From: a virus
DNA: 38,328 nucleotides
Direction: 5' to 3' (one strand)
Virus record (IMG/VR): IMGVR_UViG_3300045988_083892
Coordinates: 1-38,328 of that record
Shown here piece after piece: positions 6,169 through 38,328 of this stretch. How positions within the stretch are numbered: position 1 is the stretch's first letter; every line of letters begins with the position of its first letter. Both the position numbers and the translations under genes were made by a program. The notes under the pieces were generated by a model. The model had not been told where the DNA came from and did not search any database. It saw only the letters and a program-made list of their open reading frames with translations.

Positions 6169-6265
6169 GGCAGGGCCTCCTCTCAATCATGTCTACAATT
6201 TTGAAAGGCCACGCGGCGGCGGTGGCCGCGCCGATCAGAACGAAAACGAATGTTGTGGTATCCAT
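6155..6265 (-). CDS. 36-aa membrane peptide (below the ORF-track cut-off)
   Basis: Hand translation gives MDTTTFVFVLIGAATAAAWPFKIVDMIERRPCHEKR. A GAGGAGG RBS lies 7 nt upstream of ATG 6265. Confidence 0.45.
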   Translation of the reverse strand: MDTTTFVFVLIGAATAAAWPFKIVDMIERRPCHEKR

Positions 6266-6267
6266 AG

Positions 6268-6483
6268 TCAAACCTCCTCAAAGTGGTAGCACTGGCGCAG
6301 GCCGTTCTCAAAGGTGGCCAGAAACCAGCGGTGCGGGATGTTGGTGTAAGTGATGGTGCCGGTTTTCAGGCGGGGATGGTCATCCTCAATTTGAAACGGC
6401 CATGTTCCCCGTGTGCCCAGTGACGGGCGGTGGGGTGTTTCCGGGGCCTGACGGCTGCGGGTGATGCTGTTGTAGCTGCTCAT
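6268..6483 (-). CDS. Hypothetical protein
   Basis: 71-aa ORF coupled by ATGA to the upstream gene. No recognisable motif. Confidence 0.6.
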   Translation of the reverse strand: MSSYNSITRSRQAPETPHRPSLGTRGTWPFQIEDDHPRLKTGTITYTNIPHRWFLATFENGLRQCYHFEEV

Positions 6484-6680
6484 TTTTTACCTCCACAGAG
6501 TTGCCGGGCGAAGGTGGCGGCGGAGATGTAGCCGCCCTTCTGCAAAGGGAAATGGCGCTGAATGGTGCGCAGATCTTTCATGCCGGTGAATTTCCGAATG
6601 TCAGATAGGTTCAGAAGCTGCCGACCGCCGGTAAAGGCGAGGATTTGTTCCAGATTGTCTCGATATGCGGGATGTTCCAT
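6480..6680 (-). CDS. Small putative HTH DNA-binding protein
   Basis: 66 aa. LLNLSDIRKFTGMKDLRTIQRHF looks like a helix-turn-helix. It has a strong AAAGGAGGA RBS and is preceded by copy A of the 22-nt leader motif. Confidence 0.5.
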   Translation of the reverse strand: MEHPAYRDNLEQILAFTGGRQLLNLSDIRKFTGMKDLRTIQRHFPLQKGGYISAATFARQLCGGKK

Positions 6681-7056
6681 AAGGGTCCTCCTTTTTGGGT
6701 ATTGTCGTGATTGCGATTGATGGAGCGATGCGTAGCTAAATTAAGCCGCCGCACTGCCGAGCCTATCTATGCCATGCCGTGGCCTCGCCGAGCCGAGCTA
6801 TTCCGTTGCATTTCCTTGCCTCTGTGCATTGCCTTTGCTAAGCGTTTCTCCGCTTTGCCTTTGCTGTTACCAGCATCGCATAGCATTGCCGTGGCCAATC
6901 TTTGCGTTACATGGCCTTGCCGTTGCTTTGCGCCTCCTGACCTTGCCCAGCCCCTCGTTTCCGTGGCAAATCACCGCCGGGCCATGCTTTGCCGTGGCTT
7001 TTCCGAGCGCCTCACAGCGTTTCCATTGCTTAGCGCCGCGGGACTTCTCCGCTGCG
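6681..7056 (-). repeat. 376-bp ORF-free block with degenerate 9-mer repeats (GCMACGGMA on the transcribed strand)
   Basis: Read on the minus strand: GCCACGGCAAAGC, TGCCACGGAAACG, GCAACGGCAAGGC, GGCCACGGCAATGC, GCAACGGAATAGC and GGCCACGGCATGGC, at irregular 26-86 nt spacing. GCGGAGAA occurs twice. CTAAGC and CTTAGC can pair over about 190 nt. The transcribed strand is very T-poor. Confidence 0.7.
6702..6723 (-). promoter_or_regulatory. Conserved 22-nt leader motif, copy A (sense: CCATCAATCGCAATCACGACAA)
   Basis: One of five near-identical copies, each just 5' of a Shine-Dalgarno sequence. See also 7662, 9305, 12636 and 12849. Confidence 0.6.
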
Positions 7057-8042: not shown

Positions 8043-8320
8043 AAAGACTTGCGCGGGCGTTCCTGTTTTGGTAAAATAAGTGCATCCCATTAGAAAGGGG
8101 GCGAGGCCTATCAAAGCTGCGCTTAAAGCGTTTGCCAAGGCAGGCTTTTTGCCTCCCACGCCAGAACACCACCAAACCAGGTGGCGGCCGGTAGGTGGGA
8201 AAACGGAGCTGCAACCGTAAGGATGGCGCGTCAAGATAGAAGCAAGGCCATTCTTTGTCTTAAATTAGGTCAAACCAGACGTAGTTAAGTGCATTGACGC
8301 TTCTGGGAAAGCGCAGGGAG

Positions 8321-8352
8321 AATTATTCGTGGAATGGCCGCGAATAATTTTT
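8321..8352 (+). terminator. Rho-independent terminator (plus strand)
   Basis: A 12-bp stem, aattattcgtgg / ccgcgaataatt, with a 5-nt loop, followed by a T run (8348..8352). Confidence 0.7.
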
Positions 8353-8375
8353 CCGGGAAATAGTTCGATTAAATC

Positions 8376-8576
8376 TTACTTTCTGGGTATAAAAATATTG
8401 TCCATGGGGACGCCGTAAAGATCGCAGAGGGAAAGCAGCTTGTCCGCCGGGGGAAATCGCTTGCCGATCTCCCAATTATAAATCGTGCGGCTGCTGACCC
8501 CAATGGATCTTGCGGCGTCTGCCTGCTTCATTCCACGGTTTACGCGGGCGGCGCGGAGGGTAACTTGAAAGCTCAT
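8376..8576 (-). CDS. Cro-like XRE-family HTH regulator (first gene of the leftward early arm)
   Basis: Start moved to ATG 8576 (AAAGGAG RBS). The HTH is RGMKQADAARSIGVSSRTIYNWEIGKRFP. It is 66 aa and divergent from the cI-like gene. Confidence 0.85.
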   Translation of the reverse strand: MSFQVTLRAARVNRGMKQADAARSIGVSSRTIYNWEIGKRFPPADKLLSLCDLYGVPMDNIFIPRK

Positions 8577-8612
8577 AGCGCGAACTCCTTTCGTTCGATT
8601 TAATCTAACATT

Positions 8613-8641
8613 ATAATACCACCGGCGAAAAGGGATGTCAA
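8613..8641 (-). promoter_or_regulatory. Leftward early promoter
   Basis: On the minus strand: TTGACA (8641..8636), a 17-nt spacer, then TATTAT (8618..8613), with TATAAT also overlapping. Confidence 0.65.
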
Positions 8642-8673
8642 GCAAAAAGTTAGGTTAAAACGAAAAAAAGTTC

Positions 8674-8702
8674 TTGCAATTCGATTTAAAATGACTTACA
8701 AT
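8674..8702 (+). promoter_or_regulatory. Rightward repressor promoter
   Basis: TTGCAA (8674..8679), a 17-nt spacer, then TACAAT (8697..8702). The -10 covers ATG 8701, so the repressor most likely starts at ATG 8731. Confidence 0.6.
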
Positions 8703-8730
8703 GGATTTAACAAAAAAGGGGGTGAAACCA

Positions 8731-9078
8731 ATGGGGCAAGAAGAAATCTGTGCAGTTTTTGCGCGGAATCTAAATAAATTGATGGTCCGGGAAAACCTGA
8801 AGCAAAGCGATCTCGTATTAAAATTGAGCGTGTCGAAAGCGCAGGTATCAGATTGGTGCGCCGGGAAGAACATTCCCAGATCGAACTATCTGGCCGCGCT
8901 GGTAGACCTGTTCGGCTGTCAGCTTTCAGAACTCATGAGCGAAAAACAGCCCGCCCCCACGGATGAGGGCGAGCTGAGCGAAGAGGATAAAAAGCTGCTC
9001 ATGATGATCCACAATCTTTCTCCGGAGAATCGGGCGCGGATCGTTGCGATAATAGAAGCTCTTGCAGGGCTTGAATAG
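8731..9078 (+). CDS. cI-like XRE-family repressor (HTH plus short C-terminal helical tail)
   Basis: Start set to ATG 8731 behind AAGGGGGTGA. The HTH is LKQSDLVLKLSVSKAQVSDWCAGKNIP. An acidic linker follows, then LLMMIHNLSPENRARIVAIIEALAGLE. Confidence 0.85.
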   Translation: MGQEEICAVFARNLNKLMVRENLKQSDLVLKLSVSKAQVSDWCAGKNIPRSNYLAALVDLFGCQLSELMSEKQPAPTDEGELSEEDKKLLMMIHNLSPENRARIVAIIEALAGLE

Positions 9079-9393: not shown

Positions 9394-10476
9394 ATGGCAA
9401 AGAAAAGCAAATATGGCGTCCGAAAGGACGGGCTGCACGAGGCAATCCGCACTATCAACGGCAAGCGGGTGGCCTTTCGCGGCAAGACAGATCGAGAGAT
9501 CGACCGCAAAATCTTAGAGTACCAGATGGAGGCGGAGAAGGGCCGGAATTTCCCGGTGATCGCGGATGAATGGGAGCGGGAACACGAGAGCGAGATCTCC
9601 GAATCATCCCGGCGGGTATACAGCTACGCTGTGAAGCGTCTGAAAAAGGCGTTTCCGGGCAGGGCGTCGGAGATCGAGCCGGTAGACGTGCGAAACTACA
9701 TCAAGCGCTTTGAGGCGCAAGGGCGCAGTGCCAACAGCGTCGGCATTGAGCTGGCGGTCTGCCGGATGATTTTTGCCCACGCGGTCATCCAGGGAGACAT
9801 TCGGATCAATCCGGCGGCGGAGGTGAAAAAAAGCCGGGGCCTGCCCTGCAAAAAGCGGGAGGCACTGACGGAGGAACAGGAGGAGGCCGTGAAAGCGGCG
9901 GGTCTGACAAAGGCGGGCCGCTGGTGGCTGTTTGGCTATCTGCTGCTTTACACCGGATGCCGCCGGGGTGAGGCGTTGGCGCTGACCTACAAGGACATTG
10001 ACCGCCGCGCCGGTGTGATACACGTCAACAAAAAGGTCAGCTACGCCACCGGCAAGCCGGTGCTCGAAAATCACCTGAAGTCGGAGAACGGTCTGCGGGA
10101 CATTCCCCTGCTGCCCCCTCTGGCGGACGCATTGCCGAAAAACCGGATCGGGCTGCTGTTCCCCGGTGACGATGGGGGCTATATGCGGCCCCACGAGATC
10201 ACGCGGGAGTGGCGGCACTACTGCCGGGGCGTTGGCCTGAATGAGATCCAGCAGGGCGAAAACGGCGAGACGTTGGAGACGTTCCCTATCACGCCGCACT
10301 GCTTCAGGCACAGCTTTGCAACGATCTGCTATGAGGCGGGGCTTGATCCAAGACAGGCGGCTGGCCTGCTGGGCGATACGCCGGAGGTGGTGGAAGCGGT
10401 TTACACCCATCTGCGGCAGGACCGAAAGCAGACGGCAGCCGAAAAGCTGACGGCGTATTTTGAAGCTGTAAAGTAA
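9394..10476 (+). CDS. int: Tyrosine recombinase / phage integrase
   Basis: 360 aa. Catalytic-region motifs are TGCRRGEALAL, HCFRHSFAT and LLGDTPEVVEAVYTHL (the R...HxxR...Y pattern). It has an N-terminal SAM-like core-binding region and an AGGAGGAAAGG RBS. Confidence 0.92.
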   Translation: MAKKSKYGVRKDGLHEAIRTINGKRVAFRGKTDREIDRKILEYQMEAEKGRNFPVIADEWEREHESEISESSRRVYSYAVKRLKKAFPGRASEIEPVDVRNYIKRFEAQGRSANSVGIELAVCRMIFAHAVIQGDIRINPAAEVKKSRGLPCKKREALTEEQEEAVKAAGLTKAGRWWLFGYLLLYTGCRRGEALALTYKDIDRRAGVIHVNKKVSYATGKPVLENHLKSENGLRDIPLLPPLADALPKNRIGLLFPGDDGGYMRPHEITREWRHYCRGVGLNEIQQGENGETLETFPITPHCFRHSFATICYEAGLDPRQAAGLLGDTPEVVEAVYTHLRQDRKQTAAEKLTAYFEAVK

Positions 10477-10518: not shown

Positions 10519-10739
10519 ACTGTGAACTTACTGTGAAGGTCGGGGCATGATTTATGCAACATCGTGTGACACTATCAGGCAAAGGCTAAAGAAGCCGAAG
10601 GCGTTGAAAATAAAGGCTTTGATGGCGCACAGTGTCAACGAGTGGAATTTAGAGAAAATCGTGAAAATTTAATACTTTTATAACACTTTTTGAGGAATGG
10701 CAAGGGATTGGCGGCTATACTGTGAATGTTCTGTGAAGC
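10519..10739. repeat. Candidate attP: two 21-bp modules, each carrying a CTGTGAA pair (arm-type integrase sites)
   Basis: actgtgaacttactgtgaagg at 10519..10539 and actgtgaatgttctgtgaagc at 10719..10739, in the same orientation and 200 bp apart. They flank an AT-richer ORF-free stretch directly downstream of int. Confidence 0.55.
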
Positions 10740-12998: not shown

Positions 12999-13454
12999 AT
13001 GAAAATACCAGATTATTCTGGAGCAGGAATTTACAAAATCAAAATCGGGAGTGCCTTTTATGTCGGGTCATCAAAGAACATCAAAAAACGGATACGGTCC
13101 CACCTGAGCAACATAGCAAACGGAACGGAAATGAAGAAAATTCAAGCAGCCGCCGAAAGCGGAGAGGAAATACATGTTGACATACTCGAAAAAATTTCTG
13201 ATAATGAAACCGTATGGCACATGCTGTTGAGGGAAAGATACTGGATCGAACAGCTGCGGCCAGAGCTTAACAGCGCGCCGCCGGGCGGCTATGATGATGT
13301 CTTTGACAGGATCAGAGCAGCGGAAGAAAGCGCAAGGCGTCATGAACGGATCGCCGCCGGTCATCGGGCTTACGCCAAGAGCATGAAAAGGAAATATTTG
13401 AGAAAGATAGGTGGCGAAATTGACAACAAACAGGAAGAAACTGGAAACAAATGA
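12999..13454 (+). CDS. GIY-YIG nuclease domain protein (free-standing, low GC)
   Basis: GIYKIKIGSAFYVGSSKNIKKRIRSHL ... RERYWIEQLRPELN matches the GIY, YVG, R and E motifs. It has a basic C-terminal tail and is markedly AT-richer than the rest of the genome. Confidence 0.85.
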   Translation: MKIPDYSGAGIYKIKIGSAFYVGSSKNIKKRIRSHLSNIANGTEMKKIQAAAESGEEIHVDILEKISDNETVWHMLLRERYWIEQLRPELNSAPPGGYDDVFDRIRAAEESARRHERIAAGHRAYAKSMKRKYLRKIGGEIDNKQEETGNK

Positions 13455-13605
13455 GAGGTATTTACAAAAGCTGGAAAGGATCGTTTTTCGGATCCATAAG
13501 GACGGCAGCGACGGATTTACAAAAGATCAGGTAGAAGCGGCAGCAGCGGCGGCAGGCCAGAGCGTCAACGCCTGGATCATTGAGGCCATCCGGGACAAGC
13601 TGTAA
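13411..13605 (+). CDS. Ribbon-helix-helix (Arc/CopG-like) DNA-binding protein
   Basis: ERIVFRIHKD (beta strand) ... GQSVNAWIIEAIRDKL is typical of Arc/CopG RHH proteins. It uses a GTG start and overlaps the GIY-YIG gene by 44 nt. The RBS is weak, so the start is uncertain. Confidence 0.65.
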   Translation: MAKLTTNRKKLETNERYLQKLERIVFRIHKDGSDGFTKDQVEAAAAAAGQSVNAWIIEAIRDKL

Positions 13606-13616
13606 CGAGAGCGAAA

Positions 13617-13652
13617 GCGTCGAGGGATAACACCCCCGGCGCTTTTCTCTTT
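13617..13652 (+). terminator. Rho-independent terminator after the RHH gene
   Basis: Stem gcgtcgaggg / cccccggcgc (one mismatch, one G-T pair), loop ataaca, then ttttctcttt. Confidence 0.65.
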
Positions 13653-13653
13653 G

Positions 13654-13737
13654 TGTGGGGCGGGGCGGCAGCAGCGGCAGAGGGAGAGAGGGAGAAGGAG
13701 GGGGGACTATAGGGGGGAGAATAAGAGAGTGAGAGTG
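13654..13737 (+). repeat. Polypurine (G/A) tract with a perfect 15-nt mirror repeat
   Basis: 13679..13706 is 28 consecutive purines. gagggagagagggag (13680..13694) is mirror-symmetric. The whole span is roughly 85% purine by eye. Confidence 0.85.
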
Positions 13738-13742
13738 TTACA

Positions 13743-13830
13743 AGCGTCTAATAAGCGTTAGATGCTTAGTATTAGCGTCTAATACTTAGCACACCCCCCA
13801 AAGAGAGATATATATTCTCTGGGTATAGAT
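13743..13830. repeat. Ori-like / operator-like module II: two long palindromes built from GCGTCTAAT half-sites, a C-run, AGAGAGATA, and TA-rich tracts
   Basis: AGCGTCTAAtaagcgTTAGATGCT at 13743..13766. CTTAGTATTAGcgtCTAATACTTAG at 13765..13789 (11-bp arms, one mismatch). These are followed by ccccccaaagagagatatatat and tatagatatatatac. It aligns by eye with 3743..3793. Confidence 0.65.
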
Positions 13831-13974
13831 ATATATACTTGCTTCTACTGGGAGAGTCACGAAAGAGGGAGACACGGCGAATAAAAAACGCGAGAGAGCG
13901 AGGAAACACGAGGAAACGTGAGCAAAACAGAGCATTTGCAAGGTATTCGAAGCTATTGCGAGGTAGACCGCGAA

Positions 13975-14227
13975 TGGGGCGGGGCTGGCGGTGGGCTGGT
14001 GGATGGCGGCGGCTGATGGGGGCAATTCGGCGGGGGCAATTCCCTTTCCCGGTGAGATTTAAGGGGTCATTAAATATTTTCGTTGCGGCTGCTTGGCTTC
14101 GGCTGCTGCTGTGTTGTTTCTGTGCAGTTTCTCTCCCGGTTCGGGCTATTCCGGTCACGGCTCCGGCTGGGGCTTTATCCATCTCCGGGGCTGGGGCTGA
14201 TGGTCTGGGGCTGGTGGTGGCTGATGG
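13975..14227 (+). repeat. G-rich short-repeat field (GGGGCTGG, GGCTGATGG, GGGGGCAATTC)
   Basis: GGGGCTGG-type boxes occur at 13981, 14187, 14193 and 14207. GGCTGATGG occurs at 14011, 14195 and 14219. GGGGGCAATTC occurs at 14018 and 14032. TGGGGCGGGGC is also found at 13658. Confidence 0.8.
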
Positions 14228-14252
14228 TGAAGGCTTCTTCTACCGATGGATA

Positions 14253-14405
14253 GGAGGGGTAGCGGAAAAAGAGGGGGTGTCTCTTCCTCGTGGTATAGGG
14301 CTATATACCCACATCCCCTCTCCCCTCTGAGAAACCTGTCAGTGCAGCTGCGGAAAGCTATGCCGGTGATCCCTCTGGGGGGGTGGCGGAAAAAGGGGGC
14401 GGGGG
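14253..14405 (+). repeat. Two copies of GGGGT(A/G)GCGGAAAAAG(A)GGGGG bracketing a long imperfect hairpin
   Basis: The copies are at 14253..14279 and 14377..14405. agagggggtgt (14270..14280) pairs with acatcccctct (14311..14321). The inner stem is gtggtata / tatatacccac. Confidence 0.7.
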
Positions 14406-14542
14406 ATTTTATGTAGAACATTACGAAAATAACTGAAACCTATTGTATTCGCTTGATGAAATATGCTTGAATGAAGTTGGCGGAAGAGGTTTCCACCTGC
14501 CTCCTATGTCAGACGCCAGTTTTCACTTTCCTTTCCTGTTGC

Positions 14543-14567
14543 CCGGTGGGCCGGTCGGGCCCACCGG
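14543..14567 (+). other. Perfect 10-bp GC-rich hairpin 5 nt upstream of the tRNA
   Basis: ccggtgggcc ggtcg ggcccaccgg, with no T-run after it. Confidence 0.7.
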
Positions 14568-14572
14568 AGCAT

Positions 14573-14648
14573 GGTTTCGTAGCTCAGTCGGAAGAGCGAG
14601 CGGTTGTTAACCGCTGGGTCGCAGGTTCAATCCCTGCCGAAACCGCCA
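14573..14648 (+). tRNA. tRNA-Asn (anticodon GUU) with encoded CCA
   Basis: Hand-folded cloverleaf. Acceptor stem GGTTTCG/CGAAACC; D stem GCTC/GAGC; anticodon stem AGCGG/CCGCT; loop TTGTTAA; 5-nt variable loop; T arm GCAGG-TTCAATC-CCTGC; discriminator G; then CCA. Confidence 0.93.
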
Positions 14649-14675
14649 GAATTTTTTGTGAGAGGGGGCCGGGGC

Positions 14676-15197
14676 ATGGCCAAGACAGCATCGAACCACA
14701 GCAAGGCACACATGGACGATATGAACAAGAAGGCCGCCGCGGCCCACAAGAAACAGACGATTGAGAGGATCAAGGTGTTTTTGGAGCAATCCGAGAATTA
14801 CTTTGACGTGCAGGATCGACTGAAACAGGCATACAGTGAGGCGGGCCTTGCCAATGCGATGCGATGGACGGTTCAGCGGCTTCAGGGGTATTACGACTAC
14901 AACGATGGCCGGGAGGCCGAGGTGGTCGAGGCACAGGTGGAAGCCTTTGAAGCGGGCAATGAGGAGATTGAGGACCCCCGCTGCGTCATGAGCTACTACG
15001 TGCGGCTTGCGTACCAGCGCATCCAGGAGCAGATCGACACCAGCCCCATCTACCAGGAAAAGGGCATGGTGACGCGAGGCATTTTTCTGAACAAGCAGAA
15101 GCGTCTGGGCGGCTATCAGGACAAGCAGGAGACCCGACAGGACATCAGCGTGAACGTGACCTTCGGGGACGGCGTGGACGCAAGCGACTTCAAGTGA
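14676..15197 (+). CDS. Hypothetical protein, first gene of the late arm
   Basis: Start moved to ATG 14676 (GAGAGGGGG RBS) because the longer track ORF would run through the tRNA. 173 aa. No recognisable motif. Confidence 0.7.
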   Translation: MAKTASNHSKAHMDDMNKKAAAAHKKQTIERIKVFLEQSENYFDVQDRLKQAYSEAGLANAMRWTVQRLQGYYDYNDGREAEVVEAQVEAFEAGNEEIEDPRCVMSYYVRLAYQRIQEQIDTSPIYQEKGMVTRGIFLNKQKRLGGYQDKQETRQDISVNVTFGDGVDASDFK

Positions 15198-17168: not shown

Positions 17169-18221
17169 ATGGCTATCAATTACGCCGTTAAATACGCAAC
17201 CAAGATCGCGGAGGCTTTCTCTAAGCCTTCTATCACCGACGACGATGCCGGTAAGGCATACACCTGGACCGGCCCCAACAGCAAGACCATTGTCGTTGGC
17301 AGTGTGGACACCGTGCCGGAGACCGAGTACACCAACACCGGCGACAACCGATTCGGCACCACCTATGACCTGGGCGACACTCAGCAGGAGATGACCTGCG
17401 AGCAGAAGCCCGCCTTCTCCTTCACCATCGACGCGGTGGATCAGACGGATCAGGCCATTGAGAAGTCCGCTTCCCGCGCCCTGCGGCGTCAGCTGGAGCA
17501 GCGGACCACCCCCAACATGGACCGCCACCGCATCAAGAAGTGGGTGATGGGCGCTAATATCCAGCGTCAGGAGACAACCGCCCCCACCAAGAGCACCATC
17601 GGCGGCCTGATTATTGACCTGAACGCCGATATGACCAACGCCCTGGTGCCCATGGAGAACCGCACCCTGTACATTGCCACCAGCTATTACAAGCTGCTGA
17701 AGCAGGATCCCGCCTGGCTGGGCACCGAGAGCCTTGCCAAGGAGGCCCTGACCAGAGGCGTGGTGGGCCAGTACGACGGCTGCCGGGTGAAGAACATCCC
17801 CGACCGCTATATGCCCGCCGGCGTGTACTTCTTCATCAAGTGGAAGGGAAGCACCGTGGACCCCGTGAAGCTGGCGCAGTACGACATTTTGCCCAAGGTG
17901 AAGGGCTATTCTGGACCCGTGGTGCAGGGCGTGACCTACTATGACAGCTTCGTGCTGGGTGCCAAGGGCGACGGTGTTGCCGTGTGCGGCAACGCTGCCA
18001 TTCTGGCCGCACCCGTGATGTCTATTACCGGCCATGCCGTCAGCATCACTGCCGTGTCCGGTGTGGTGTTCAAGTACACCACCGACGGCACCAACCCCCG
18101 GTACTCCAACACCGCCCAAATCTACACCGCTGCTGTGACCCTGACCGCCGGTCAGACCATGCGGGCTGTGGCCACCAAGGACGGCTGCGTGGGCATTGAG
18201 GGCACCAAGGATTACGAGTGA
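17169..18221 (+). CDS. Major capsid protein with a C-terminal Ig-like / chitobiase-type (CHB_HEX_C-like) domain
   Basis: 350 aa, following the scaffold-like gene and followed by a strong hairpin. The last 76 aa or so (FKYTTDGTNPRYSNTAQIYTAAVTLTAGQTMRAVATKDG) match the YT.DGS.P ... Y...i.l....i.a.a pattern of that domain. Confidence 0.7.
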   Translation: MAINYAVKYATKIAEAFSKPSITDDDAGKAYTWTGPNSKTIVVGSVDTVPETEYTNTGDNRFGTTYDLGDTQQEMTCEQKPAFSFTIDAVDQTDQAIEKSASRALRRQLEQRTTPNMDRHRIKKWVMGANIQRQETTAPTKSTIGGLIIDLNADMTNALVPMENRTLYIATSYYKLLKQDPAWLGTESLAKEALTRGVVGQYDGCRVKNIPDRYMPAGVYFFIKWKGSTVDPVKLAQYDILPKVKGYSGPVVQGVTYYDSFVLGAKGDGVAVCGNAAILAAPVMSITGHAVSITAVSGVVFKYTTDGTNPRYSNTAQIYTAAVTLTAGQTMRAVATKDGCVGIEGTKDYE

Positions 18222-18311: not shown

Positions 18312-19697
18312 ATGCCTCGATATAAACAGACAGCAGGCGGAACGGTACAAGTGGATTTGGGGACGCTGAACCCCAAACAGAAGCAGTTCTGCCAGTCCCG
18401 GAGCCGGTACACGGCTTACGGCGGTGCCAGAGGCGGCGGCAAGACACACGTTCTGCTGCGGAAGGCGGCAGGCGGCGCGCTCACCTACTCCGGCATCAAG
18501 ATCCTGATCGTGCGCCGGGAGTACCCGGAATTGGAGCAGAACATCATTCTGCCCATGCAGAAGCTGATCCCGCCGGAGGTGGGCAGCTACAACGGCAGTA
18601 TGCGCATGATGTTTTTCTGCAACGGCAGCATTATCAAGTTCGGCCACTACGGAGCGGGGGACGATCAGGAATATCAGGGACTTGAATTTGACTGGATCTT
18701 CATGGAGGAGGCCACCCAGTTCTCAGAATCCCAGTTCCGCACGCTGGGCGCGTGTTTGCGCGGCGCGACGAAGTTTCCCCGGCGGATGTACCTGACCTGC
18801 AACCCCGGCGGCATCGGCCACCTGTGGGTAAAGAGGCTGTTCGTGGATCGGGAATACCGGGAGGGGGAAAAGGCCAAGGATTACACCTTTATCCCCGCCA
18901 CGGTGGACGATAACCCCCAGCTTTTGGAGGCGTCCCCGGAGTACAAGCAAATGCTGGACCTACTGCCGGAGGATGTGCGGCGGGCGTGGCGCTACGGCGA
19001 TTGGAACGCCATGGCAGGCACGTTCTTCCCGGAGTTCCGGCGGGAGACCCATGTGATCACGCCCTTTGTGCGGGTGCCCCAGGAGTGGAAGAAATACCGG
19101 GCGTTCGATTATGGTCTTGATATGTTCGCCTGCCTTTGGGTGGCGGTGGACTTTGAGGGGCGGGCCTATGTGTACCGGGAGGTACAGCAAAGCGGCCTGA
19201 TCGTCAGCGAGGCGGCAAAGCTGGCAATTGCCCTGACGCCGCCGGAGGAACACATTGAGTTCACCATTGCCCCGCCGGATATGTGGAACCGGCAGAAGGA
19301 CAGCGGGCGGAGCATGGCAGAGATTTTTGCACAGAACGGATTAGGGCTGCTGAAAGCCAGCAATAACCGCGTTCAGGGCTGGATGGCCGTCAAGGAGCTG
19401 CTGAAGCCCATGAAGAGTGACACGGACCGGCCCGGACTACTGGTGACGGAAAACTGCGTGGGCCTGATCCGCAATCTGCCCTCCATCCAGCATGACGAGA
19501 AAAACCCGTCGGACTGCGCCACGGAGCCCCACGAGATCACCCATATCTGCGACGCTGCCCGGTATTTCTGCGTGACCCGCGTTTTGGGCGCTCAGAAAAC
19601 CGTGGAGAAGATCGTGGACGATTTCGACGAGGGCGAGGACTACGATGACGTGATGACGGGCGGGGAAATGACCGCCGGTTATCTATCATACGGATAA
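18312..19697 (+). CDS. terL: Terminase large subunit
   Basis: Walker A is YGGARGGGKTH and Walker B-like is FDWIFMEEATQF. It has a C-terminal nuclease-like region and is 461 aa with an AAGGAG RBS. Confidence 0.9.
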   Translation: MPRYKQTAGGTVQVDLGTLNPKQKQFCQSRSRYTAYGGARGGGKTHVLLRKAAGGALTYSGIKILIVRREYPELEQNIILPMQKLIPPEVGSYNGSMRMMFFCNGSIIKFGHYGAGDDQEYQGLEFDWIFMEEATQFSESQFRTLGACLRGATKFPRRMYLTCNPGGIGHLWVKRLFVDREYREGEKAKDYTFIPATVDDNPQLLEASPEYKQMLDLLPEDVRRAWRYGDWNAMAGTFFPEFRRETHVITPFVRVPQEWKKYRAFDYGLDMFACLWVAVDFEGRAYVYREVQQSGLIVSEAAKLAIALTPPEEHIEFTIAPPDMWNRQKDSGRSMAEIFAQNGLGLLKASNNRVQGWMAVKELLKPMKSDTDRPGLLVTENCVGLIRNLPSIQHDEKNPSDCATEPHEITHICDAARYFCVTRVLGAQKTVEKIVDDFDEGEDYDDVMTGGEMTAGYLSYG

Positions 19698-21571: not shown

Positions 21572-23248
21572 ATGAGCAAACAGACGATGACCCCGGAGCG
21601 GGTCGGTAAGGAATACAGCGCGGGGATCAGCTTCAACAGCGGCATTGACCTCTATGACTGCGTGGAGACCAACGAAAATTTCTTCATCGGGAAGCAGTGG
21701 GAGGGTGTGCAGAGCAACGGACTCCCAACCCCCGTATTTAACTTCTTGAAGCGGGTGGTACTGTTCTCCGTGGCGAATATCTCCACGGATAATCTGAAAC
21801 TGTGGGCGCGGGCCATGTCCTCCAGCGGGGAGCGGAATACGCAGACCTTGGAGCTGGTGGCGGATATTCTCAACGATCAGTTCGCGTCCATCTTTGAGCA
21901 CAACAGCATCGGCGGGCGCATCCGGGAGTTTACCAGAAACGCCGCCGTGGACGGTGACGGCTGTATGTATACCTATTGGGACGATACGGCGGAGACCGGA
22001 CAGGCCAGCAAGGGGGCCATCCGCACGGAGGTCCTGATGAATACGCAGGTCCTGTTCGGCAATCCCAATAACCGGGACGTACAGAGCCAGCCCTACATCA
22101 TTCTGGAGCGGCGGATGCTGCTGAGTGAAGCCCGGAAGCGGGCCAAGCGGTACGGCAAAGACCCGGACGAGATCCAGCCGGACAACAAGGACTGCGGAAA
22201 CAACTATATGGATTCCATGAGCGGCAGCGGGAACAAGGTGACGGTGCTGCTCCGGCTGTGGAAGGATGACGAGACAGGCACTGTCCATGCCTACGAGTGC
22301 ACCCGGCAGGCAGAGATCCGGGGCAATCTGGACCTCGGTATCAAGCTGTATCCCCTGACGTGGATGAACTGGGACTATGTGCAGGACTGCTATCACGGAC
22401 AGGCCATGATCACCGGCCTGCTCCCGAACCAGATCTTTGTAAACAAGCTGTTCGCCATGTCCATGATCTCCCTTATGACGCTGGCCTATCCGAAGGTGGT
22501 ATATGATTCCACCAAGGTAGCCAAGTGGACGAACAAGATCGGCGGGGCTATCCCGGTGAACGGCAGTGTGGAGGGCGTGGCGAAGATCATTGACCCGGCC
22601 AGCATCTCCCCACAGATCAGCCAGTTTATTGATATTGCCATCAGCTACACGCAGAAGTTCCTCGGCGCATCGGACGTGGCGCTGGGCGATACCCGCCCGG
22701 ACAACACCTCCGCCATCATCGCCTTGCAACGGGCGGCGGCAACCCCCATGGAGCTGACGAAGCAGAACCTTTTGCAGAGCATTGAGGATCTGGGCCGCAT
22801 CTACATGGAGTTCATGGGCGAATACTACGGAGAACGGTATGTGGAGATCTCCAACCCCTATGACAACAGCAAATTGGTGGTCCCCTTTGACTTCTCCATC
22901 CTGAAGGAGATCCCCTTTACCATCGGACTGGACGCGGGCGCGGCTTCCTATTGGAGCGAGATCGCGGCCATGCAGACGCTGGACAACCTTCTGATGCAGG
23001 GTAAGATCTCCACGGTGGAGTATCTGAAGCGTCTGCCCGCCGGACAGATCACCGACAAGGAGGCGCTGATCCAGACCCTCCAGCAGCAGGAGCTTGCCAT
23101 GATGGGCGGCGGTCAGCCGGAAGCAGAGGGCGAACAGCCTGTTGCTCAGGAAGAAAACGTCCCCATTCGGGGCGGGGCCGGATACGGCCAGTTACAGCGG
23201 AAAATCAACGAGACAGGCGAAGTGCCAAAAACGGAGGTAGGTGCTTAA
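21572..23248 (+). CDS. Portal protein
   Basis: 558 aa. NENFFIGKQWEG near the N-terminus, the central LLPNQIFVNKLFAMSMISLM segment and the C-terminal helical tail resemble portal proteins. It sits in the packaging/head module. Confidence 0.7.
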   Translation: MSKQTMTPERVGKEYSAGISFNSGIDLYDCVETNENFFIGKQWEGVQSNGLPTPVFNFLKRVVLFSVANISTDNLKLWARAMSSSGERNTQTLELVADILNDQFASIFEHNSIGGRIREFTRNAAVDGDGCMYTYWDDTAETGQASKGAIRTEVLMNTQVLFGNPNNRDVQSQPYIILERRMLLSEARKRAKRYGKDPDEIQPDNKDCGNNYMDSMSGSGNKVTVLLRLWKDDETGTVHAYECTRQAEIRGNLDLGIKLYPLTWMNWDYVQDCYHGQAMITGLLPNQIFVNKLFAMSMISLMTLAYPKVVYDSTKVAKWTNKIGGAIPVNGSVEGVAKIIDPASISPQISQFIDIAISYTQKFLGASDVALGDTRPDNTSAIIALQRAAATPMELTKQNLLQSIEDLGRIYMEFMGEYYGERYVEISNPYDNSKLVVPFDFSILKEIPFTIGLDAGAASYWSEIAAMQTLDNLLMQGKISTVEYLKRLPAGQITDKEALIQTLQQQELAMMGGGQPEAEGEQPVAQEENVPIRGGAGYGQLQRKINETGEVPKTEVGA

Positions 23249-25729
23249 ATGGAGAAGCGATTGACAGCGGACCTGAACGTGGTAGCTAACTCCAATCTGG
23301 AGATCCAGCTGCTGGACGGCAATCTGAATATCATTCAGAAGCTGGATGACGAGCCGAACGACGTAGGCGGTCTGACCAGTGCGGAGCTAAAAGCCAAGTT
23401 CGACGAATCCGGCAACATTATCAAAAAGTACATCAATGAGACCCTGATCCCGGCAGTGCTGACGGATGACGCCACGGAAGAAAGCCGCAAGCAGGCGGAA
23501 GCGGCGCGTGTCGCGGCAGAGCAGGGGCGCGTGACCGCCGAGGAAGGCCGGGTATCTGCGGAAACAGCACGGGCAGCGGCGGAGCAAGCCCGGTCCGAGG
23601 CCGAAGCCTCCCGCGTGTCCGCCGAAAACGCGAGAGCGGCGGCGGAGACGGCCAGAGCCGACGAAACCGCCGGGATCGTAGCCCGGGCAACCGAACAGGC
23701 CAACGCGGCGGCGGGCAGCGCGTCCCAAGCCGCAGGCAGTGAGCAGAGCGCCAAGGATGCGGCGGGTACGGCCACCGGCGCGGCAATCTCCGCCAGCCAG
23801 TCGGAAACGGCGGCATCCGGCTCCGCGTCTCAGGCCAGCGCGGCAGCGGCGGCGGCGGCTGGAAGCGCCGCAGGCGCAGAGACTGCCAGCAAAACCGCTC
23901 AAAGCTGGGCCGTAGGCGGAACCGGCACCAGACCCGGGGAGGACACGGACAACGCCAAGTATTGGGCAGAGAAGGCACAGGCAGTTGTGGGCGGTGACTT
24001 CGCTACCAAGGTGGAGGCGCAGGGCTATGTAACGGCGCATAATGAGAGCAACGTCGCCCACTCGGACATCCGAAAGGCGCTGGAAGGCAAGGCGGCGGCC
24101 ACACACGCCAGCCAGCACGGGAAGGATGGGGCGGATCCCATTACCCCTGCGGCCATCGGCGCTGCATCGCTGGGCGCGGACGGCAAGGTGCCTGCAAGCC
24201 AGTTGCCGGAAACTAACACATATACCAAGGATGAAATACTCAAAGATGCCACGGCTGCCAAGTTTGGCAAGGATACCGGCGCTGTGCCGGATGAGGTGCT
24301 GGATGTGCTGAGCAAGAGCGTATTGGAGGGCACCTATCCGGTTGTAGATGTGTACGCGGGACAGAATTGGGAAAAGGGCACTGTGCCCAACGTCAGCGGG
24401 TCCGTGTGGCAGCAAATTGCGGTTGCAAACAACATCCTTTTTTCGTTCCCAATCAGCGGTACAACCGCAGTCATGTCAACGGACGGAAAAACATGGACAA
24501 CACTTACGATCCCAACTGTATCGGGTGGTTATAACTATGGTGGTAGACACAGAATTGTGTATGTGGGTGACACATATTATCTTCTGATACCCATTACATC
24601 AAGCCCATACAAGGCAATTATTTATGCTACGCAAAATCTGTCTACATGGACTTTAAAGTGCACGCTATCGCTAACTAACATTGCGTACGACCTGTTTTAC
24701 AGCAATTATCTGAGCAAATTTGTCCTTATCGACATATACGGCAAGGTGTATTTGAGCAGCGATGCGGAAAATTGGGAAAGCACATACAGCCTCGGAACGT
24801 CAGCGTCAAGCCATCCAACGTTTAACAATGGCATTGACGGTCCCGATGGCTTCTATATTGCAGTCCCCGTCTCCAAAAAAATTCAGGTCTTTAAGCTCAA
24901 ATCTGATAGTTTTGAAACGGTTTTTACGTCTGCGGACCTGTCAAACACAATCGAAAACGTTGCTTTTGTAAAATTTAAAGGAAAATATTTTGTGTATTCC
25001 GCGTATGGCATAGCGCACAGCGAGGACCTAAAAGCGTGGCAGTTGTCCGACGCAAATTATCAATCGAGCAGCGCAAATGTTACAACCATTACGCAGCAGC
25101 TTGCGTGCAGCGATGTCAATGTGCTCATTAAATTTGGCCTTGAGTCTCTTGTGAGCTTCGATGGACTTAATTTTAAACGCATTACGGATAGCGTGTCATC
25201 GCAGCAGGGGAGCATGGCATACATTAACGGCGTTTTCTGCTTCCATTCGCAAGGCGCTCCGTCCGCAATCAATCCTTATTACACCCCCGACACCACATTT
25301 AAGGACGAGCCGGGGCTGGTAGATGTGCTTGGAAATATGGTCAATATCCCATTAAAGCAAATTGCGGGGGCGGCAAGTATCGAGATCGGAACGTATACGG
25401 GCACCGGCGGATATGGCTCGTCGCATAGTCGGGCACTTGTTTTTGCTAAAAAGCCAATAATTGTTTTTGTGTTCCAGATTGAGGCAATGACAAACAATTA
25501 CGATGGCGGCTTGTGTATACTGTTTCCGTCCGCCGAAAAAATGGCAATATACGGGACAAACTCATTTACAACCTCCGAGAATATATTTAGCGCACAAGAC
25601 CTCGCTGTATCAGCAAGCGGCGCAAATATAACCTTAAAGTGGACCCCCGTTAGAGATATTTACGTCGGGGCGATGTGTAACAAAGCTAAAAAATATGGCT
25701 ATGCTGCTTTTTTTAGTGAGGAAGGGTAA
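23249..25729 (+). CDS. Tail fibre / receptor-binding protein: Ala-rich coiled-coil N-terminal half plus Asp-box (BNR-like) beta-propeller C-terminal half
   Basis: AEQGRVTAEEGRVSAETARAAAEQARSEAEASRVSAENARAAAETARA repeats are typical of phage fibres. The C-terminal half has STDGKTWTT, SSDAENWES, SEDLKAWQ and SFDGLNFK (S.D.G.TW-type boxes). Confidence 0.75.
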   Translation: MEKRLTADLNVVANSNLEIQLLDGNLNIIQKLDDEPNDVGGLTSAELKAKFDESGNIIKKYINETLIPAVLTDDATEESRKQAEAARVAAEQGRVTAEEGRVSAETARAAAEQARSEAEASRVSAENARAAAETARADETAGIVARATEQANAAAGSASQAAGSEQSAKDAAGTATGAAISASQSETAASGSASQASAAAAAAAGSAAGAETASKTAQSWAVGGTGTRPGEDTDNAKYWAEKAQAVVGGDFATKVEAQGYVTAHNESNVAHSDIRKALEGKAAATHASQHGKDGADPITPAAIGAASLGADGKVPASQLPETNTYTKDEILKDATAAKFGKDTGAVPDEVLDVLSKSVLEGTYPVVDVYAGQNWEKGTVPNVSGSVWQQIAVANNILFSFPISGTTAVMSTDGKTWTTLTIPTVSGGYNYGGRHRIVYVGDTYYLLIPITSSPYKAIIYATQNLSTWTLKCTLSLTNIAYDLFYSNYLSKFVLIDIYGKVYLSSDAENWESTYSLGTSASSHPTFNNGIDGPDGFYIAVPVSKKIQVFKLKSDSFETVFTSADLSNTIENVAFVKFKGKYFVYSAYGIAHSEDLKAWQLSDANYQSSSANVTTITQQLACSDVNVLIKFGLESLVSFDGLNFKRITDSVSSQQGSMAYINGVFCFHSQGAPSAINPYYTPDTTFKDEPGLVDVLGNMVNIPLKQIAGAASIEIGTYTGTGGYGSSHSRALVFAKKPIIVFVFQIEAMTNNYDGGLCILFPSAEKMAIYGTNSFTTSENIFSAQDLAVSASGANITLKWTPVRDIYVGAMCNKAKKYGYAAFFSEEG

Positions 25730-38024: not shown

Positions 38025-38311
38025 TCAGCTCCGTCATCCTTTCTCTCGCTGTAACTGCAAAAGAATGTCCTTGTGTCCAGCTCAAACGGCAAAAACGCGA
38101 TGTTTGTTTTGGAGCAAAATGCGTATATATCTTTTCGATTCCACACGCACAAATGCTTACAGTCTTTGCACCGCGTCACGACCACGGCATCCACGGTGGG
38201 GGCTTTTTCAATCAAGCCAAGTAAGCCGTTCCAACCAGCACAATACGCCGCAGGGAGAACATCTTTGCTGCACCGCCCCACGCCCAATTCATCAACATCA
38301 ATCAGCCTCAT
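38021..38311 (-). CDS. Small Cys-rich protein, related to 37580..37879
   Basis: Start set to ATG 38311, 6 nt after GGAGGTG. It contains VVVTRCKDCKHLCVW ... FCSYSERK. Its 5' end lies inside the terminal repeat. Confidence 0.7.
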   Translation of the reverse strand: MRLIDVDELGVGRCSKDVLPAAYCAGWNGLLGLIEKAPTVDAVVVTRCKDCKHLCVWNRKDIYAFCSKTNIAFLPFELDTRTFFCSYSERKDDGAE

Positions 38312-38328
38312 GGTCAGCACCTCCGTCC
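38274..38328. repeat. Right copy of the exact 55-bp direct terminal repeat
   Basis: Identical to 1..55, base for base. Confidence 0.97.

Follow-up and report, generated by a model that had tools for sequence, protein, structure and literature searches.

A conserved box module in a gene-free block at the head of the late operon of an uncultured temperate phage: a candidate late-control region

Positions 13606-14572 of the virus record IMGVR_UViG_3300045988_083892 (IMG/VR; the whole 38,328-nt stretch is called the window here) form a 967-bp block without genes that ends at a tRNA-Asn gene. On balance we favor reading this block, with somewhat more confidence than doubt, as a DNA-level control region of the late operon (packaging, head, tail and lysis genes) that carries the tRNA in its leader. 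An earlier note on the same DNA, made from the letters alone, had offered a late-control region among several possibilities, and this one fits a block that lies directly upstream of the small terminase gene, terS, at the late-operon head. Regions of this type are already known. The box module described below is apparently undescribed, and its link to an attP-type repeat was unexpected.

The box module

The window contains exactly two copies of the box, at 14256 and 14380, each within a larger element.

14256-14314, plus strand: box-1 module, consisting of GGGGTAGCGGAAAAA (14256-14270), 21 nt, GGTATAGG (14292-14299), CTATATAC and CCCACAT (14308-14314)
14380-14412, plus strand: box 2, GGGGTGGCGGAAAAA, with one mismatch to box 1, then a G-run and ATTTTAT

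Two sets of sequences were compared with the window. The family set has 53 related IMG/VR loci, 42 of which contain both genes flanking the block; the distant set has contigs with TerS homologues at 65-70% and about 40-48% identity. Individual loci and lineages are given by L numbers. GGGGTAGCGGAAAAA is present in one or two copies in every distant lineage compared, and an exact-match scan of IMG/VR for the box yielded at least 119 loci. Among the matches listed, about 40-50 distinct lineages share an extended module in which the box is followed by 21-23 nt of G-rich sequence with a CTC core, then GGTATAGG (TATATATAAT in AT-rich lineages), ATAT and C(C)CACAC(A/G)T, often with TTCnCAGAC at the end. 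Across 48 aligned lineages the box is invariant, and its distance to the TATA-like element is fixed within 1-2 nt. Most lineages also have a looser second box with a G-run, 67-291 nt (mostly 80-125 nt) 3′ of box 1.

The module is always oriented toward terS or terL. A terS of the PF16677 type (GP3_package, P22-type small terminase) lies within 1.6 kb downstream in 16 of 34 non-redundant module-bearing loci, and in two lineages without such a gene the module lies 260-400 nt upstream of terL. Searched with a profile of the family alignment, many lineages proved to be homologous in collinear order over about 13881-14408. BLAST of the distant lineages against the window finds similarity only in the upstream ribbon-helix-helix (RHH) gene and the short box. 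RNAalifold places no consensus base pair (0) in the 48-lineage module alignment. With its spacing and orientation fixed and no pairing conserved, the module is conserved as linear sequence, which is the signature of a promoter- or activator-type DNA site.

We know of no consensus that the 15-bp box fits, and a full-text literature search for its 11-nt core GTAGCGGAAAA returned irrelevant papers only; the box thus seems undescribed. It can also serve as an inexpensive tag for locating where the packaging module begins in these phages: a single exact-match scan yielded more than 100 contigs.

Flanking genes and synteny

The block is bounded by two genes on the same strand.

13411-13605, plus strand: 64-aa RHH (Arc/HicB-like) gene, with a weak Pfam HicB match and a phrog_13890 match
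14676-15197, plus strand: terS, terminase small subunit, first gene of the late operon

The window TerS protein has no Pfam match of its own. Homologues at 38-48% identity, with E values of about 1e-24 to the window protein, do carry PF16677. Since terS comes directly after the tRNA, the block stands at the head of the packaging/late operon, as the earlier note had said in placing it directly upstream of that operon. Downstream follow a scaffold-like gene and the genes for the major capsid protein, TerL and the portal. An RHH gene, a gene-free spacer of 0.8-1.2 kb and packaging genes come in this order in all the relatives that were fetched, the most distant of which have about 40% TerS identity. 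The order in distant lineages is int, small minus-strand genes including a DnaJ-like one, and then on the plus strand the RHH gene, the spacer, terS and the genes for major capsid protein, TerL and portal. Of the 30 non-redundant module-bearing loci with enough upstream sequence, 19 have an RHH homologue within 1.5 kb upstream, at 0.5-1.1 kb from the box.

Among closer lineages the C-terminal helix of the RHH protein is nearly invariant and its DNA-reading beta-strand varies. The protein is unlikely to be the reader of the box, which is invariant, or of the CTGYG repeats discussed below, because the strand does not track repeat type.

Three side observations concern relatives. A gene of about 100 aa resembling sigma-70 region 4/ECF proteins immediately precedes terS in the intermediate relatives L098 (5679-5981) and L099 (1475-1774), the typical position of a late activator; the window has no homologue of this regulator. 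Tad2-like (anti-Thoeris) domains occur early in the late operon of L109 (6338-6790), L112, L119, L120 and L183 (4773-5588). In L118 (1758-1822, minus strand) a type II hammerhead ribozyme was matched at 42 bits, above the gathering score of 37, amid small minus-strand genes.

Contents and non-coding status of the block

Upstream of the leader the block contains the following features, besides the two box elements given above.

13613-13655, plus strand: intrinsic terminator of the RHH transcript, probably bidirectional (hairpin 13613-13646, -20.8 kcal/mol, then the TTTTCTCTTT T-run)
13656-13735: purine-rich block containing GGGGGG-ACTATA-GGGGGG at 13700-13717
13740-13792: two adjacent palindromes, sub-lineage-specific (-18 kcal/mol, z -3.0)
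13806-13839: TA tracts with GGGTATAG, similar to the TATA portion of the box-1 module
13883-13894, plus strand: AAAAAACGCGAG motif, with order and orientation kept in L105, L109, L116, L206 and L150
13899-13918, plus strand: tandem CGAGGAAAC(A/G), gapped in 14% of the family
13963-14034: sub-lineage insertion; it holds GGGGCTGG and GGCTGATGG boxes, copy one of GGGGGCAATTC with the beginning of copy two, and the start codon (ATG) of a 118-aa open reading frame (ORF)
14018-14028 and 14032-14042: two copies of GGGGGCAATTC
14057-14075: ATTTAA-N7-TTAAAT palindrome, found in many lineages (as an RNA hairpin, -1.2 kcal/mol, z +0.2)
14109-14124, plus strand: CTGTGT-N5-CTGTG direct repeat (11-bp phase) that matches the attP arm repeats in kind
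14160-14250: poorly conserved G-rich repeats GGGGCTGG and GGCTGATGG (family identity 0.21-0.61; repeats D4, D5, D7 and D17)
14253-14275 and 14377-14399: duplicated GCGGAAAAA box, 87% identical
14270-14280 with 14311-14321: 11-nt inverted repeat

All features that the earlier note had listed are present, at or very near the places it gave. Several of the repeats are lineage-specific, namely the palindromes (13746-13790 is missing from about 83% of family members) and the insertion 13963-14034 (absent in 65-79%). The tandem CGAGGAAAC repeat showed no conservation across lineages. The AAAAAACGCGAG motif has an exact 14-nt match in L144, boxes resembling GGCAATTC recur in the spacers of other lineages, and L105 and L109 have GTATAG...ATATATAC motifs similar to the TA-tract element. 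The TA tracts hold repeat D9 and also repeat D3, which is 77% identical to 14287-14308.

The terminator has a GC-rich hairpin, a U-run, conservation (13626-13645 is 94% identical across the family; consensus fold z -3.2) and a position at a gene end, with an A-rich run upstream. A simple terminator scanner missed the hairpin at 13613-13655, probably because of an internal mismatch in its stem.

The block is non-coding. Its ORFs (163 aa on the plus strand from 13839, 136 aa on the minus strand) keep neither frame, extent nor strand across 42 relatives, the 118/163-aa ORF has no Pfam match, and one relative lacks any ORF of at least 60 aa in the spacer. The doubt already voiced about a 119-aa ORF from ATG 13974 was well placed, the start region being lost in about 70% of relatives. 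The period-3 power ratio of substitutions is 0-1.7 in the spacer (2.9 in one window of the scan), 5-22 in terS and about 3 in the RHH gene. Column entropy over most of the spacer is 0.35-0.49, near that of third codon positions of terS (0.3-0.39), and falls to 0.21 over 14386-14535. Most of the spacer therefore changes at a rate like that of third codon positions, and constraint is confined to islands. The spacer measures at least 970 nt in all 42 relatives with both flanking genes. It is 0.3-1 kb longer in L017, L029 and L037, where the extra sequence, with a 123-aa ORF, directly follows the RHH gene and precedes the conserved spacer. Elsewhere in the window, stretches of about 0.5 kb without long ORFs also occur near 6204-6711 and 8234-8701.

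The leader and the tRNA slot

Four features lie between the box-1 module and terS.

14386-14485, plus strand: highest conservation in the family, at 95-98% identity (one 20-nt bin at 87%)
14479-14497, plus strand: small hairpin GGCGGA..TCCGCC (-7.5 kcal/mol, z 0)
14543-14567, plus strand: perfect 10-bp GC hairpin without a U-run, 5 nt before the tRNA (-28.6 kcal/mol, z -5.2)
14573-14648, plus strand: tRNA-Asn(GTT) (ARAGORN; Rfam 67.9 bits)

The stretch 14386-14485 is a probable core promoter or leader of the late transcript. In L105, L118 and L113, canonical sigma-70-type promoters lie between the module and terS, which puts the module in an upstream regulatory position; the conserved stretch is likely the functional equivalent of these promoters in the window. 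The small hairpin shows one compensatory pair in the family alignment (A14484:T14492 to G:C). Eight base pairs of the larger hairpin are invariant, and it is kept in relatives without a tRNA.

The slot after this hairpin varies: some relatives have an odd 78-nt tRNA in it, some an additional tRNA-Trp or tRNA-Ser, and some no tRNA. The 78-nt tRNA-like gene replaces tRNA-Asn in 13 of 43 loci (L002 5895-5972 and L018 5857-5934 among them). Its acceptor, D and T arms are identical and its anticodon arm is enlarged and aberrant (ARAGORN "tRNA-??? (cg)"). A tRNA in decay and an unusual decoder are both conceivable. In L098 a skipping-rope RNA (RF02924, 5312-5405, plus strand, 55 bits against a gathering score of 36.7) lies roughly in the tRNA slot, between the box block and a 77-aa gene, the sigma70_r4-like gene and terS. 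Because the slot varies and the hairpin is kept without a tRNA, we regard the small RNA genes as cargo of the late leader and not as part of a larger RNA. The idea of an RNA-gene slot beside the tRNA thus stands for the last 100-250 nt or so before terS, with its other tRNAs and skipping-rope RNA, and not for the rest of the block.

Search for a large structured RNA

A long non-coding block beside a tRNA in a temperate phage is the typical setting of the GOLLD and ROOL RNAs, and a large ornate RNA of this type, or of a new class, could be supposed to run along the plus strand and end at the tRNA. It would suit such an RNA that in many lineages numerous short conserved islands, spread over 500 nt or more, alternate with variable segments, and that a few inverted repeats stay symmetric through changes on both arms. 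We ran Rfam 15 cmscan on the whole window at gathering score and on 13400-14800 at E<=10, a check that the earlier note had proposed. The whole window gave the tRNA only. Beyond the tRNA, the relaxed search of 13400-14800 gave only chance-level matches to unrelated families, with no GOLLD, ROOL or other large RNA among them. No large-RNA family reached its gathering score in 14 distant homologous loci, where tRNAs, one skipping-rope RNA and, elsewhere, one hammerhead were found.

Conservation of structure was measured by sliding-window RNAalifold on 32 non-redundant family members against column shuffles, on both strands. The consensus fold over 13656-14455 gave z of +1.5 to -2.8 on the two strands, with no excess over shuffles. 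Excess was found only at the terminator and in the windows with the hairpin and tRNA (z -4 to -7.5). In an all-against-all covariation scan of the 42-sequence alignment the top match, and the only one to stand out, was the tRNA acceptor stem. The remaining matches were purine-run/pyrimidine-run low complexity that tolerates any R-Y change, and were rejected. The pairing once suggested between the pyrimidine runs and the upstream purine runs comes down to this same compatibility, and most other lineages carry the purine block in inverted orientation. The hairpin proposed at 14270-14321 fails as a conserved RNA stem, with 48% of cells pairing over 48 lineages against 41-50% in slid controls.

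An RNA role is further opposed by the inversion of one conserved element between lineages, by the near-neutral rate of most columns and by the deletion of large parts in most family members. The large-RNA hypothesis is largely refuted, and we now hold such an RNA to be very improbable. The lesson is that a phage gap which is long, rich in repeats and next to a tRNA does not on its own make a case for a GOLLD/ROOL-like RNA.

The attP-type repeat and other DNA motifs

The phased repeat at 14109-14124 has counterparts beside the integrase gene.

10520-10535 and 10720-10735: CTGTGA-N5-CTGTG direct repeats, about 200 bp apart, directly after the integrase stop codon

These are probably the arm-type sites of attP. 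The phased-repeat motif has three matches in the window against 0.38 expected. Relatives have 2-3 tandem CTGTGTATTTT units at the same place after int, and the 11-bp phase of the spacer repeat is kept in nearly all lineages. Repeat type co-varies between the int side and the spacer: both are of CTGCG type in L127 and L140, and both of CTGTG type in the window, L192, L195/L144, L217 and L175. As the repeats are shared and co-vary, one protein probably binds both places, either through an integrase arm-binding domain or as an excision factor. We also looked for wider similarity between the attP region and the spacer, but only the direct repeat beat shuffled controls, and only in L140 and L217.

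The spacer itself was rejected as attP, being intact inside the integrated prophages L105 (245-kb contig) and L113 (75-kb contig). The prophage junction of L113 maps to the int-proximal region of L114, which places attP beside int and not in the spacer.

Two further motifs are of protein-binding type. GGGGGG-ACTATA-GGGGGG (13700-13717) represents, in inverted orientation, a C6-TATAAT-C6 element that lies 410-840 nt upstream of box 1 in 22 lineages. The C-form is on the terS strand in 16 of these and the G-form in six, including the window, and in C-form lineages the order of element and terminator is swapped. We considered an inverton and rejected it, since orientation is fixed per lineage, with one orientation in all 42 family members; the element is flanked by a weak 13-nt inverted repeat only. 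The symmetry of the palindrome at 14057-14075 survives changes on both arms across lineages (TTAAC..GTTAA; TATAAT..ATTATA).

A packaging site

The main rival to the late-control reading is that the block is a pac or cos site, in which TerS binds the boxes and phased repeats and bends the DNA, and the large terminase cuts nearby. The block does lie immediately upstream of a terS of the P22 gp3 type, and upstream of terL in other lineages. The box is asymmetric, has an A-tract and occurs in two copies 124 nt apart with phased repeats close by. The P22-type portal and Terminase_3/6N TerL of relatives suggest headful packaging, which needs a pac site. Yet the box is invariant across lineages whose TerS proteins are only about 40% identical, and across different gene orders. 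Characterized pac sites of P22 type lie within terS, not up to 400 nt upstream of it. The TATA-like element at fixed distance and the constant orientation toward the operon suit promoter architecture better. The ends of related contigs are scattered, at arbitrary positions, with no pile-up at the block, which speaks weakly against a pac site, as the assemblies are circular and their ends uninformative on termini. We consider a packaging site unlikely, while taking it seriously as the chief competitor.

A leader RNA or a replication origin

The box-1 module could instead be the promoter of a short or weakly structured leader RNA that acts in cis to gate late read-through, of the lambda 6S/tR′ type or put-like. 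CCCACA(C)RT and TTCnCAGAC lie 3′ of the TATA-like element, where the first transcribed nucleotides would be expected. Of the 30 lineages in which box 2 could be detected, 23 have a short T-run after its G-run, and in the window a C-rich segment at 14315-14325 could base-pair with the G-run at 14395-14405, immediately ahead of UUUUAU. As a terminator this C-run/G-run pairing did no better than shuffles in stability and in frequency of pairing (most z -1.5 to +1.7 across lineages). The lack of consensus structure in the module also counts against a leader RNA, as does the fact that no Q-, N- or LoaP-like gene was recognized. For Q-like antiterminators the ORFs scanned were those on the early-gene side and beside the block, many of them unannotated, and none was found. 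A leader RNA of this kind is thus quite unlikely in our judgment.

Direct repeats, TA tracts, palindromes and a strongly positive GC skew would suit a replication origin with iteron-like repeats. The replication genes, however, are far off and on the other strand, the palindromes and some repeats are missing in most relatives, and the conserved parts point to terS and are tied to packaging genes. We regard an origin as highly improbable.

A scheme for late control

In the late-control reading the block would work as follows. The terminator would end the upstream RHH transcript. A weakly constrained stretch would then carry motifs of protein-binding type (C6-TATAAT-C6, the palindrome and the phased repeat shared with attP), followed by the strictly conserved bipartite module and the looser second box. 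The conserved leader, a hairpin for stabilizing or processing, and tRNA-Asn would come next, ahead of terS. One factor, probably highly conserved and either a phage late activator or a component of host RNA polymerase, would read both boxes and turn on late transcription. The transcript would cross the tRNA, which would be cut out of it, and continue into terS. Through the repeat shared with attP, integrase or an excision factor could bind the spacer as well, which would make late expression depend on the state of excision. The comparisons show that the block is non-coding, how it is conserved, its synteny, its lack of conserved RNA structure and the shared, co-varying repeats; its role as promoter or activator, which proteins bind it and the course of the transcript are what we infer in this scheme.

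Several points weigh against it. A search of 13606-14676 of the window for sigma-70-type promoters (-35/-10, 16-18 nt spacer) gave no match, and neither a late activator gene nor a sigma-like one turned up in the window. The adjacent RHH protein is the obvious candidate reader, yet misfits an invariant box. The distance from box module to promoter ranges from about 20 to 200 nt in other lineages, unusual for a simple activator site, and a pac role would predict the same position and orientation. The co-variation of repeat type between int and spacer rests on two CTGCG lineage groups only, which are possibly related.

A bolder proposal is that the module of about 60-100 bp represents a new class of phage late-gene switch common to dozens of uncultured lineages, with one conserved reader, wiring through arm-type repeats, and excision gating the packaging genes. 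We hold this to be doubtful. If the late-control reading is true, a large group of uncultured temperate phages known from metagenomes, without a characterized relative, gains a testable late-control cis-element, a 15-bp box with a partner in fixed phase, and attP-type sites may be tied to the packaging operon by regulation.

The phage

The first and last 55 bp of the window overlap exactly (1-55 = 38274-38328), so the assembly is complete and circularly closed, about 38.27 kb long, and begins at an arbitrary place. The phage is temperate. Other genes are as follows.

8701-9078: repressor-like gene
9394-10476: integrase
12999-13454, plus strand: GIY-YIG endonuclease gene, overlapping the start of the RHH gene by 44 nt
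17169-18221, plus strand: major capsid protein
18312-19697, plus strand: TerL
21572-23248, plus strand: portal

The minus strand carries the replication genes (helicase loader, SSB, exonuclease, RusA), distant from the block. The GIY-YIG gene looks like a homing-endonuclease insertion, because the distant lineages L105, L109 and L113 have no Pfam-annotated counterpart at the same position. Within an 826-aa late gene (23249-25729), GC rises to 0.72 at 23501-24000 of the window with a strong A-over-T skew, and GCG/GGC repeats occur at 23836-23859.

The window has no DNA-level match to any GenBank phage, and no close phage has been characterized. The closest GenBank TerL proteins are from unannotated "Bacteriophage sp." entries from human feces, at no more than 54% identity. 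A search for the host with an exact 24-mer from the most conserved stretch gave no matches in 185,579 species genomes.

Comparison with known systems

Structured RNAs. The block resembles GOLLD and ROOL loci in its temperate phage (integrase), the tRNA-Asn adjacent at its 3′ end and its non-coding size. It differs in having neither a covariance-model match nor conserved secondary structure, and in that parts of it are inverted or deleted among relatives.

Packaging sites. SPP1 pacL/pacC/pacR, P22 pac and P1 pac share with the block adjacency to terS, duplicated asymmetric A-tract boxes, phased repeats and a span of a few hundred bp. Unlike at these sites, the box here is invariant while TerS diverges, and it lies upstream of terS, not inside it.

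Late promoters. The lambda/Stx PR′-qut-tR′ region and the activator-dependent late promoters before terS in Gram-positive phages (RinA/ArpU/LtrC/Alt type) likewise occupy a non-coding region right before the first late or packaging gene, with a tRNA in the leader and upstream elements of fixed orientation. In RinA-type phages, as in the relatives L098 and L099, a small sigma-70-region-4-like gene lies directly before terS. The block differs from both in its length of 0.8-1.2 kb and in that no Q-like or RinA-like gene was found in the window; compared with lambda/Stx, the putative terminator hairpin of its leader did not stand out from shuffles.

Shared arm-type repeats. P2 Cox, 186 Apl and integrase arm-type sites provide a precedent for direct repeats spaced about one helical turn that occur both at attP and in a transcription control region. 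The spacer here has a single repeat pair. Its place ahead of the late/packaging operon also differs from the second site of P2 and 186, which is the early lysis-lysogeny switch.

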